From a virus, in the UHGV virus genome UHGV-1672366: a stretch of DNA of 27,041 bases; one strand, 5' to 3'. Position numbers: made by a program. Of the stretch, positions 15,001 to 18,000 are shown piece after piece; the stretch's first letter is position 1; every line of letters begins with the position of its first letter.

Positions 15001-18000
15001 TAAATGAGTCAGTGGTCATACGGCTGGCCAAACGGTTTAGAGAGTCGGCAATTTTCTGACGCAGATCTGATTCGGTGATATCGTCTACGCCTTTGCGATA
15101 GGTCTGGAACACCGTCGTTACCTTGTCACGATTAACCAGATACGCAACGCCAATTTTGTGACCAATAGCAGTACCGTCACTCATCTGGAATGTGAACGGC
15201 TCGTCGTAGGTCTTCATTTGTTTGAAGGTAGGGAATACGTAAAGTTCGGTGTTAAGACCTGTCCATTGGCGACCAACGCCAACCACTTCACCAATCCCTT
15301 TGTCTTCACCTAATTTGTTTACTTTGATGCCAACGTATCCAGGCTCTACGCGATCACAGCCAGTAAGACCCATTGTGCAAATAGCCGCCAGAGCAACTGC
15401 AAGTAAACCTTTCTTCATTACTTATTTCCCCTTTGCTTTGATTAATGAGTTAATAAACTTACGACCAGCAATAAGACCGATTACAGGAGTACCAAAACCA
15501 ACGATAACTCCAAGCATGACGGCCAAATCACTCTTTGCAGAAATCAGCGACGGAACCAGTAATCCGTAGATGAGAGCCACTGAAAGGCCTGTGGCTACTG
15601 CCAATAGATAGATTTTGATCATGTGTTTTCCTATGTGGTTGTTATGCGAAAATGATAAGTAAGTACTTATATATTTTCAAGAGATAAAAAAGGCGTCCTG
15701 TGGACGCCTTGTGTTTACTCTTCTACTGACTCGGTGGGATTGTCTTTTGATCTCCGGTCGTCGATTGCCTGTAAAGCCGCAATGATTTCAGCTAGTGGCT
15801 TCTCCCGATACATCTCGACGATCTGTGATTTGGTGTATTTCTTGTCACCAATTTCTACGCGCCCGCTGGCGTTCTTTGGCAGGTATCCTTCATCCAGCAT
15901 GTACTCGACGAGCGATTCGATAACGTCGAGGCCACGAGTAGGATCGAAGTAGAATTTCCAGGTGCACTTGCCATACGGTGGTGCAACTTTGTTTTTGATG
16001 CACTCTGCGCCTACGTCCTGACCGATCTTCTCTTTACCATCCTTCATCACCGATGCACCGAGACGGATGCGCACAGAAGCGTAAAACTTCGGTGAATCGC
16101 CGCCTGGTGACGTCGTAGGGTCGCCAAACATTACACCGATTTTTGTGCGAACCTGATTCAAGAAGATGATGCAGGCGTTATATTTGCGTGCCCACAAAGC
16201 CAGAGTGGGGAAGTTCGCGCTCGTCGCACGAGCAAGCGCCGTATTGTCGTTCATGTTTAGCTGATCTTTGTCTTTGGCAGTGCCTTCAGCCATCTTTTCG
16301 AACTTCTCGGCTTTGGAGTTCGGAACCATAGACGCAAGTGAGTCAGCCACGATACAGATAGGTGCTGATTCAGGGATAAGCTCTTCATCACGTACCAATT
16401 TAAGTATTGTGCCGATCAACTCTACAGAGTCTTCGAAGGTATCAGGCTGCTTGTATACCCACTGGCCGTCATCCTCATCTGCATTCAGGCCATTGGCTAC
16501 CGCCAGGCCAACGTCAAAACTGTTCTCATGATCGAGGAATACCGCCAGACCATCTTGTTTCTGAGCGGAGATCATTGCTGCTGTTGCCAAAAAGGTTTTC
16601 CCCGCGCTTGGAGGCCCGAATACTTCTACGATACGACCACATGGGAAACCGCCATCGTAACGACCGGAAATAGCTTTGTTTAACGGAGGAAAGCCTGTGT
16701 CAATCCAATGAGTTACTTTCTGAATTTCGTCGTTGCTACCGATTTTCTTTTTCAGAGCAAGTGCCAGTGCGGATTTTCCTTTTGCCATGATCAGGCTCCT
16801 TTTGTTTTGTTGATTCGTTTTAAAGCGGCGGATTCGTCGAATACAATCGCATCGTGGTTAAGGTGTTTGGATACACGAGCGAGGATTTTTACGACCTGCT
16901 CGCTGACTAATCCAAACTCGCGATCTGTCGCTTTCATTCCGGCAGCGCCTAGAATTGACGGCAGTGCGATGACAGCGTACTCACCGTGATAAAAGACAAT
17001 CTCTTTTGCCAGTTGGGTAGGGGTGGTGGTAGCGCCATTAATAATCGATTTAAGCATTAGCAATACCTTTCGAATGGAAGAACAAACACTTCAAGGTCTT
17101 CAAGGAACGAACGGAAATTCAGCTCGTAGCACAGTTGCTCGAATGCTTTCACGTCACGATTGCCTTTGACTGTTTCGATTTCGGTAGGCGGAAACTTCGT
17201 CTCAATCAGGTTCATTAGCGTGATGTTTCTCTTGAACGCTTCGAGCATTCGACAGCCTGTTTTCTCGTTGAAGGCATTCTTCGCTAGTTTGTTGAAGGCG
17301 GTCTTATGACGCCCTTTATTAACCACGATTGAGCCGTCGTTGATGCCGCGTACCATCGTTGCGACACTTCCCCATTCATGCAGCAGCTCTTTCGCGCCGC
17401 CAGCACCAATGCCACCAACACCGCTAATGTTGTCCGAGTTATCGCCTTGTAATGCTTTTGCTTCCAAAAATGCGCGAGGCGTGGCGAATCCTGTCAGCTC
17501 CGCAAATTGCTCAAAATTAACCTGCTTGTTTTTGGCGTCTTCACGCAGGCTTACCCAGCTTACGTTTTCGCGAACTAACTGAAGCCAGTCGCTATCGCCT
17601 GTTAACAGATAGATGTGTTCAACGGTTGGCTGCGGTGCCATGCGGGATACCAGCAGCCCGGCCAGATCATCCGCTTCTGCATCTTTTGCAATGATTTGGT
17701 TAACACCAAGCGCGGTCATCATTTTGAGGATGTATGGCTTCTGGACAGCAAAGCCTTCCTTCATCTTTTTCATATCAGGATCGTCGTCGCGATTTGCTTT
17801 GTAGTCCGGGTAAAAGTCGCGACGCTTGTCACTAAATCCATCCCAAAGAATCATAGGTCGGGCATGGAGGATGGAGGCATAACGACGGACGTTCTTAACA
17901 AAGCCGAAAGCAGCCTGTACTTCCATTTCGCCGTTGTGCAATTTGTCAGATTGTTGGTGGTAATAACCCAGGCTATTGCCATCTACGAAGAGATAATTCA

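Follow-up and report, generated by a model that had tools for sequence, protein, structure and literature searches.

The DNA examined here is a stretch of 27,041 nucleotides from the virus genome UHGV-1672366, referred to below, at its full length, as the window. Judging from its similarities, it is the DNA-metabolism and replication part of a phage-plasmid of the SSU5 supercommunity: the E. coli plasmid pEC881_2 (NZ_CP019027.1) covers 96% of it at 98% identity, and its identity to phage Cyrano (pLF82) and to Salmonella phage SSU5 is 95% and 79%, respectively. The name pSLy3 group has been used for such phage-plasmids (PMC11652158). The complete pEC881_2 is 109,344 bp, the whole element being ~110 kb. 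Phage-plasmids of this type are frequent in E. coli, Klebsiella, Salmonella Typhi, Enterobacter and Yersinia pestis, with 804 plasmid records matching the window, and blaCTX-M-15 and similar resistance genes are present on some of them. Nearly all of the window's genes lie on the minus strand, among them thyX, a mazG-like gene, nrdBA, sbcCD-like genes, a recA/uvsX-like gene, a gp32-like ssb, a uvsY-like gene, dnaE and cobS/cobT-like genes; only repB, accompanied by its iterons, and a pair of hdeA/hdeB-like genes depart from this. Recurring in the gaps between these genes is a palindrome, the candidate operator with which this analysis is concerned.

The first-pass annotation had read this palindrome as GATAAGT-N4-ACTTATC, a recurrent motif that was intergenic in every case and stood upstream of most transcription units. 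Its recurrence is borne out. At up to three mismatches this pattern, written as GATAAGTNNNNACTTATC, has seven matches in the window where 0.99 would be expected from dinucleotide shuffles, and none of 100 shuffles reaches seven. For the refined palindrome, the 16-mer ATARGTANNTACYTAT, eight matches are found at up to two mismatches (0.24 expected) and 17 at up to three (2.26 expected), neither number being equalled by any shuffle. All eight strong matches, those with two mismatches or fewer, are in non-coding DNA, which makes up 9.2% of the window (P ~5e-9), in agreement with the intergenic placement claimed earlier. Strong and weak sites together number ten.

The motif is genome-wide, and not tied to one module. 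In pEC881_2, 60 matches are seen against ~9 predicted by a first-order Markov model, and at up to three mismatches there are 41 site clusters, 33 of which are intergenic in an element that is 13% non-coding; SSU5 has 29 site clusters, 25 of them intergenic. Approximately 30 intergenic sites stand before replication, nucleotide-metabolism, helicase/primase, ligase, lysis, tail, capsid and portal genes. Some transcription units do not carry it: the nrdB and DUF7238 gaps bear a different motif, described below. A scan of the whole element found no copy upstream of repB, parA or the hdeAB-like morons. Among the lysogen-expressed genes of Cyrano that were examined, a set taken from a published transcriptome (PMC9928086), the best match within 200 nt upstream has four to five mismatches, the exception being the gene for the helix-turn-helix (HTH) protein discussed below. 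The flanks of the copies within the element are unrelated to one another, which argues against the motif being a mobile repeat.

The consensus is TGATAAGTA-NN-TACTTATCA, with a length of 16-20 bp, whether derived from a position matrix or from sites anchored by a single half-site. In the anchored analysis, a four-nucleotide 'TA' periodicity runs on into the far side of the anchored half. The ideal site is A-TAAG-TAAG-YR-CTTA-CTTA-T; phased four-nucleotide units describe the motif better than the earlier pattern of two arms around a spacer of four. Exact occurrences of TAAG-Nx-CTTA in pEC881_2 have a spacing of N6 in 11 cases, N2 in three and N3 in four, with none at N0, N1, N4, N5, N7 or N8; in SSU5 there are nine at N2 and nine at N6.

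The manner in which the two halves of the motif vary distinguishes between a site read as DNA and one read as RNA. Across 45 good intergenic sites, the transcribed strand has 266 pairable positions and its complement 265, there are 33 G.U pairs against 32 A.C mismatches, and only five compensatory changes are found against 81 that are single-sided. Each half therefore drifts alone, with neither strand bias nor compensation, which implies that the motif is read as double-stranded DNA. Such variation is as expected for the site of a symmetric DNA-binding protein, and unlike that of an RNA hairpin. This agrees with the earlier argument for a symmetric operator, which had been based on the sites at 827 and 25784 being 16/17 identical in inverted orientation, an observation that was reproduced.

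Orthologous sites are kept in SSU5, Klebsiella phage ST13-OXA48phi12.3, Enterobacter pG6809-1, Yersinia pestis CO92 pMT1 and Cronobacter pCsa767a, with much of their flanks diverged, and the motif is also found in the more distant Klebsiella pMB7868_2 and in a K. oxytoca element. A distant relative from Acinetobacter baumannii, p5388_2, which shares 48 proteins in synteny, has a related palindrome of N2 spacing, ATTAGTAAGCGCTTACTAAT, 29 times at equivalent intergenic positions; the copies often abut a perfect TATAAT, and the -35 hexamers of several such promoters are poor. An exact scan of 185,579 species genomes, one per species, with the perfect 18-mer gave 98 scattered single matches, a total that by rough estimate is about that expected by chance; among the matches listed, none is from the Enterobacteriaceae and none is clustered.

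A separate occurrence is in IMGVR_UViG_3300030106_001081 (62 kb, GC 41%), an unrelated viral contig that holds 12 copies of the same palindrome, eight of them exact to the 18-mer pattern, in two separately numbered stretches (8398-10470 and 1075-6037). Most of these copies have the fixed flanks aaCCGATAAGTAATTACTTATCAAAA and stand ~6-17 nt before the ribosome-binding sites of replication genes. A phmmer comparison of all pEC881_2 proteins with the open reading frames of the contig found no shared protein, and the contig's DNA polymerase shares only 35% identity with its counterparts in Rhizobium and Pseudomonas phages.

Promoter-like sequences coincide with the motif far more often than expected. 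Nine sigma-70-like promoters are predicted on the minus strand of the window, and five of the nine lie on motif copies, against 0.15 expected (P ~2e-7). The promoter scan recovered both of those described in the first-pass annotation, and in each the motif lies between the hexamers or over them. The first is at the best copy, 15654-15671, of which positions 15655-15670 have no mismatch to the 16-mer. This copy lies past the recA terminator (15710-15690) and 31 nt before the gene for a 66-amino-acid membrane protein; it occupies the whole spacer of TTGAAA-17-TATCAT (15680-15652) and runs into the -10. The -35 of this promoter is invariant over four lineages and the -10 is TATCAT or TATTAT, the latter being the Yersinia form. 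The second is at 5543-5560, upstream of nrdA, where the motif covers the -35 and spacer of TTGATA-17-TAACAT (5562-5534); the same promoter is predicted in SSU5, and TTGATA-17-TACTAT occupies the same place in Klebsiella. At 13702-13721 the motif abuts the ATG of a gene encoding 59 amino acids, and the TAGTAT -10 of TTTACA-17-TAGTAT (13738-13710) falls at its centre, both hexamers being invariant over five lineages. The copy at 19172-19189, upstream of the gp32-like ssb, is directly followed by a -10 (TATCAT, 19171-19166; TATCAT or TATTAT in the relatives) and is kept, with this arrangement, in six lineages. At 19637-19654, 3 nt before the ATG of the uvsY-like gene, only a half or weak copy with three mismatches is present; it stands downstream of an invariant TTGATA, such that a half-site falls in the spacer and the right half coincides with the -10 region, and its orthologue in Klebsiella is the full palindrome AGTAAGTGGATACTTAAC. 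A copy at 966-981, overlooked by the first-pass annotation, lies 2 nt past the mazG-like stop codon and upstream of the terminator at 915-897. It covers the -35 and spacer of a putative distal thyX promoter, TTGTAG-17-TATATT (983-955), which was read by eye and has only three of six -35 positions in agreement with consensus; the SSU5 equivalent is TTGTAA-17-TATATT.

The remaining copies are at 827-844, 14 nt before the GTG start of thyX and reading AATAAGTGGTTACTTATC on the minus strand; at 10224-10243, upstream of the sbcD-like gene, where ATAGGTATATACTTACTTAT contains two overlapping registers; at 25784-25801, upstream of the cobS-like AAA ATPase gene; and at 14032-14049, 16 nt before a gene encoding 91 amino acids. 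The first three are kept in SSU5 and Klebsiella. The last is a weak copy, with three mismatches; its counterpart in SSU5, Enterobacter and Yersinia is ATAAGCACTTACC, in which the good TAAG unit is the inner one, a single four-nucleotide step further in than the outer unit retained in the window. Good full palindromes are those at 827-844, 5543-5560, 10224-10243, 15654-15671 and 25784-25801. Each site listed in the first-pass annotation holds a copy or half copy, those at 14032-14049 and 19637-19654 being weak here and better in relatives, although several spans needed adjustment: 13701-13726 has its core at 13702-13721 and 19168-19196 at 19172-19189, while 14039-14048 becomes 14032-14049 and 19645-19659 becomes 19637-19654. 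A half motif that had been noted near 12560 is present as AGTGGTTACT at ~12555-12564, but is a lone 10-mer with no other support and is treated as unverified.

The TTGAAA, TTTACA and TTGATA hexamers and their -10s are kept over three to six lineages, with the -10s undergoing neutral swaps (for example TAACAT for TACTAT and TATCAT for TATTAT). The centre of the motif, reckoned from the predicted -10s, is at approximately -17.5, -21.5, -24.5 or -25.5, or on the -10 itself, depending on the promoter. No single register is shared by all promoters, yet at any one promoter the register is the same from lineage to lineage, a pattern that fits a repressor acting sterically and is hard to fit with an activator of fixed geometry. 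A -10 at one set offset from the motif was also sought and rejected, as counts of TAnnnT are near equal on both strands, with only a weak excess at offset 18 (13 against 6 in pEC881_2 and SSU5 together).

Terminators are found close to several of these promoters. Those at 15710-15690 and 915-897 are just before promoters, and at nrdA a hairpin (5533-5512) overlaps the predicted start point. The units therefore look insulated and individually controlled. The hairpins beside motif promoters, all on the minus strand, are strong intrinsic-terminator structures at 5512-5533, 897-915, 15690-15710 and 14552-14571. At nrdA the predicted start is inside the 5' arm of the hairpin, such that read-through transcripts would terminate and locally started ones would not.

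Two further features of the leaders were observed. The 59-amino-acid and uvsY-like genes (13698-13721 and 19631-19654) have no Shine-Dalgarno sequence, and their ATG stands 1-10 nt past the motif or -10 in all lineages; their mRNAs are probably leaderless, or nearly so. The ssb gene has a long leader (19085-19165, minus strand), GAGCCACGAA...GCGCATAGCGCC...GGCC..., kept in six lineages, which may be a site of translational autoregulation like that of T4 gene 32.

A search of the window's genes identified no regulator among them. Just past the window's right (cobT) end, pEC881_2 encodes an Xre-type HTH protein of 128 amino acids (100600-100986; WP_001282577.1), the gene for which adjoins the integrase and is divergent from a cro-like gene with a product of 70 amino acids. 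The protein is a homologue of CYRAN_45 of Cyrano ('putative repressor'), and the Cyrano gene is expressed 10-fold above background in lysogens (PMC9928086). It has a weak match to HTH_19 and belongs to PHROG 8, 'transcriptional regulator'; by sequence, neither an S24 self-cleavage domain nor a match to a solved structure or NCBIfam was found. It is present in 961 plasmids, with taxon counts near those of the element itself, and, of the candidates, it alone has a homologue that could be detected in the Acinetobacter element (E 5e-10).

The surroundings of this gene also carry the palindrome. The sole exact GTAAGNNCTTAC in pEC881_2 closely follows TTTACA-17-TAATAT, a promoter-like sequence recognised by eye in front of the HTH gene. 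The palindrome of this region is kept in pHCM2, whose corresponding region is not matched to it by blastn, and the interval between the repressor and the divergent lytic gene holds GTAAGCACTTAC in both pEC881_2 and pHCM2. In the degenerate Photorhabdus plasmid pPAU1, three motif copies lie between the HTH and cro-like genes, and Klebsiella pMB7868_2 has two, one at each end of the immunity region. The E. coli and pHCM2 proteins are 66% identical overall and share the recognition stretch GYKNANNLSLIKSGKIPLP unchanged; this stretch differs in the Acinetobacter protein, and the genome-wide motif of that element differs too. The 128-amino-acid protein would be the most likely binder. Among other encoded proteins, an FljA homologue is present in pEC881_2 and SSU5 and absent from the Acinetobacter relative and pPAU1, both of which keep the motif family, and two proteins with only a ParB_N (Srx-like) domain are kept in all lineages, including SSU5 and Acinetobacter, with no HTH detectable in either. 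Both types of protein are for these reasons unlikely binders. A conserved winged-helix-like protein of 88 amino acids is encoded just upstream of terS.

The interpretation preferred here, with modest confidence, is that the motif is a repressor operator in the promoters of lytic units. A phage-encoded dimeric repressor, or a pair of dimers, would bind TGATAAGTA-NN-TACTTATCA, the palindrome covering the -35, spacer, -10 or start point of some 30 separate sigma-70 promoters, many of which would be shielded from the upstream unit by a terminator. During plasmid replication, the repressor on its operators would keep host RNA polymerase away from every lytic unit; the loss of repressor on induction would then free all units together. 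The operator of a dedicated regulator proposed by the first-pass annotation is thus supported as regards symmetry, intergenic placement and promoter overlap, while the regulator is not in the window, and protein binding, repression through that binding and the identity of the binder are inferred from sequence. A more specific version, in which one small Xre-type repressor acts directly on ~30 insulated sigma-70 promoters, early, middle and late, and in which phased TAAG units let orthologous sites slide by 4 bp (N2, N6 or N10) without loss of control, seems rather improbable. Were it true, the presence of the same palindrome in an unrelated virulent phage would make it a regulatory module passed between phages that are not otherwise related, or else the target of a host factor that has gone unrecognised.

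Several observations weigh against repression by the HTH protein, or against repression in general. SSU5 lacks the HTH/cro-like/integrase module, yet retains good motif copies. This absence may be a recent deletion in a virulent derivative, SSU5 being 94% identical to pHCM2 up to the deletion point; the SSU5 sites would equally fit a binder that SSU5 still encodes. The palindrome of the immunity region in E. coli and pHCM2 is TAAG-N2-CTTA, whereas the genome-wide sites are mostly N6, and one rigid dimer should not take both. A protein of 92 amino acids, ribbon-helix-helix-like in appearance, could be the binder instead: it is retained in SSU5 and pPAU1, and is also expressed in lysogens, at 12-fold (PMC9928086). 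As regards the promoters, these are consensus predictions throughout, and shuffled sequence yields more promoter-like sites in the scan than the window itself does. Several motif copies are 1-16 nt from a start codon, too close for a normal leader, and one copy in pEC881_2 is lodged between the terminase and portal genes, which are only 26 nt apart and have no evident promoter between them. Finally, the palindrome of the unrelated contig precedes ribosome-binding sites by a fixed distance and is not accompanied by sigma-70 hexamers.

The main rival to a repressor operator is an activator box, in which a phage activator made early after induction would bind the spacer palindrome and turn on middle and late promoters, as Lpa does in P1. 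This is unlikely. The P1 late-promoter box AAGTTACTT (LPhot, NC_005856) shares the AAGT..ACTT core, the position matrix reveals no conserved -35 at a fixed distance from the motif, and the proximity of the Acinetobacter palindrome to a perfect TATAAT with poor -35 hexamers speaks in its favour, as do the copies in the unrelated contig that have no sigma-70 hexamers. The retention of sites by SSU5 in the absence of the HTH repressor would also be accounted for, and the 88-amino-acid winged-helix-like protein is encoded in the usual place of a late activator. However, the distance from motif to -10 varies by up to ~8-16 bp, which changes the helical face, and an activator in contact with polymerase normally needs one geometry. 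Good -35 hexamers (TTGAAA, TTGATA, TTTACA) are kept 16-17 bp from the -10 in several promoters, related palindromes are found in the repressor/cro intergenic region of five lineages, and no Lpa homologue was detected by phmmer and tblastn (E<10). Hence the P1 Lpa system itself was rejected, for all the similarity of its box. A phage sigma factor was likewise rejected as an explanation. The Acinetobacter element does encode a sigma-70-family protein, between its cobS-like gene and dnaE (p5388_2 109298-109963), but this has no homologue in the E. coli element, which has at that place only a 69-amino-acid zinc-ribbon-like protein (24281-24490 of the window).

The other explanations account for less of the distribution. 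That the dispersed palindromes are centromere or silencing sites, bound by a ParB/KorB-like protein for both partition and global silencing, is very unlikely. The genes for the two ParB_N proteins kept in all lineages form part of an operon, and a motif copy adjoins the first start codon of that operon (pEC881_2 39831; SSU5 99798), but both proteins have only the ParB_N domain, with no DNA-binding HTH detected, and a ParB-like binder was rejected on this basis; moreover, the element has, at another place, a ParA-type ATPase that comes with a small partner of its own, and the sites coincide specifically with lytic-gene promoters. A role in RNA, whether as a 5' untranslated hairpin, a single-stranded operator for the FljA homologue or an RNase processing site, appears more improbable still. 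FljA is known to block translation of fliC mRNA (PMC2652032), a strong homologue is encoded (PF03614, E 5e-81), and many motif copies are 1-60 nt before start codons. The strand symmetry and covariation counts given above, together with the persistence of the motif family in two lineages that have no FljA homologue, led to the rejection of an RNA hairpin and of an FljA operator; the greater part of the motif would in any case lie upstream of the start point in the predicted promoters, and a terminator separates some copies, such as that at 966-981, from the next gene. Equally improbable is that no dedicated factor is involved, and that the motif is a by-product of common promoter architecture or of AT-rich composition, a selfish repeat that has dispersed, or a target for some host protein. 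The outer arms do resemble promoter hexamers (TTGATA, TATCAT), and 12 copies in an unrelated viral contig could indicate a host factor, but the symmetric conservation extends over 16-20 bp, beyond any hexamer, in variable register to the hexamers. The flanks of the copies are unrelated, and only scattered single matches were found among the species genomes. The motif is also not known to fit the consensus sequences of Fur, LexA, NrdR, DnaA, IHF and TrpR, or the MotA box of T4.

Of the known systems, the C1 operators of P1 are functionally the closest to the repressor operator favoured here: one immunity repressor acts at many operators over a ~100-kb plasmid prophage, each on the sigma-70 promoter of a lytic gene. 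C1 operators are asymmetric. The P1 record (NC_005856) annotates them over promoters, for example OpmgT, Olpa and Oc1, and the many dispersed copies at lytic promoters described here (the 33 intergenic clusters of pEC881_2 and 25 of SSU5) resemble this network. P1 operators are, by contrast, annotated as 17-bp 'monovalent' sites bound by a C1 of 283 amino acids, where the present motif is a palindrome of 16-20 bp with symmetric conservation, and P1 late genes are run through Lpa rather than directly, where here the same motif also precedes structural genes. No homologue of C1 or Coi was found in pEC881_2 (phmmer against a six-frame translation, E<10), and the C1 system as such was rejected on this basis.

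The operators of Cro and CI in lambda, 434 and P22 are similar in being palindromes in double-stranded DNA with half-sites about one helical turn, or 10 bp, apart (TAAG-N6-CTTA), in being found between a divergent repressor and cro-like gene, as are the copies in pPAU1, and in that the candidate binder has an HTH of the Xre type. The half-site also resembles that of the P22 operator, for which the consensus is ANTNAAG-N4-CTTNANT. Unlike these systems, in which there are two sets of three operators in the immunity region, there are ~30 genome-wide here, the half-sites are tandem four-nucleotide units able to shift register, and the candidate has no S24 domain. The Lpa promoters of P1 share an inverted repeat with an AAGT..ACTT core just upstream of the -10, in many copies before morphogenesis genes, but their box is 9 bp, at an approximately fixed position, and replaces the -35, which is present in the 16-20 bp sites of variable register described here. 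Eleven such late promoters have been reported in P1 (PMC10695390). The final comparison is with partition proteins that bind dispersed sites. The KorB operators (OB) of RK2 and the dispersed SopB centromeres of N15 are scattered palindromes that tie partition proteins to the global control of transcription; they differ from the present system in that the ParB_N proteins here have no recognisable HTH, and in that the ~30 sites are centred on core promoters.

Certain other features of these elements were noted in the course of the analysis. A second motif, AYAAGAWAACAACTTGTTTA, with the core palindrome AACAAnTTGTT, has two matches in the window, both on the minus strand (3103-3122 and 14512-14531), against 0.02 expected. 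It is oriented in the direction of transcription and sits shortly upstream of the ribosome-binding site, in the nrdB and DUF7238 gaps that have no copy of the main motif. Its core has nine intergenic copies in pEC881_2 and 17 in SSU5, mostly before small genes of the early region, and it may mark a second regulon or an element of the 5' untranslated region. The FljA homologue, which is full-length (pEC881_2 42507-43031, plus strand; PF03614, E 5e-81), may silence host flagellin or act on this second motif. A long palindrome of ~53 bp, cctgcttctgtatatataaataATAAGTAACTTATtaaatatatacggaagcagg, is present in three copies in pEC881_2 (3522, 36578 and 66360), and also in SSU5 at 33477 and 78323. One copy is just upstream of terS, and none is inside the window; the centre of this palindrome, AAGTAACTT, has the spacing of the P1 late-promoter box AAGTTACTT.

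Gene content varies at two places. Between uvsY and dnaE the window holds two genes for acid-stress chaperones of the HdeA/HdeB family (20010-20342 and 20417-20755, both on the plus strand; PF06411, E 5e-28 and 5e-24), where Cyrano has hicAB and SSU5 other genes, which indicates that this is a variable moron slot. The second is the module of cro-like gene, HTH repressor, integrase and grxA carried by pHCM2 and absent from SSU5 (SSU5 41776-42761 against pHCM2 3505-8384). In its place SSU5 has a tRNA-containing stretch, and the HTH gene matches 49 Salmonella plasmid records. Loss of the module may explain the behaviour of SSU5 as a lytic phage.

A full-text literature search found no publication in which the motif, or the way the SSU5 group is regulated, is described, a 2026 preprint on phage-plasmid heteroresistance (10.64898/2026.08.19.745698) not being covered. 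A review from 2024 gives regulators for P1, N15, VP882 and GIL01, and none for the SSU5/pSLy3 group (PMC11652158). Occlusion of promoters by a repressor is a conventional mechanism, and would not be conceptually surprising. The phage-plasmids of the SSU5/pSLy3/pHCM2/pMT1 type are, however, a clinically widespread family that is mechanistically unstudied, and that includes pHCM2 of S. Typhi and pMT1 of Y. pestis. An operator, a candidate repressor and a map of ~30 promoters would together make the lysis-lysogeny switch of this family testable. If the proposed operator function is correct, it would explain how ~100 lytic genes are kept silent on a multicopy plasmid, and would provide handles for curing or inducing these elements.

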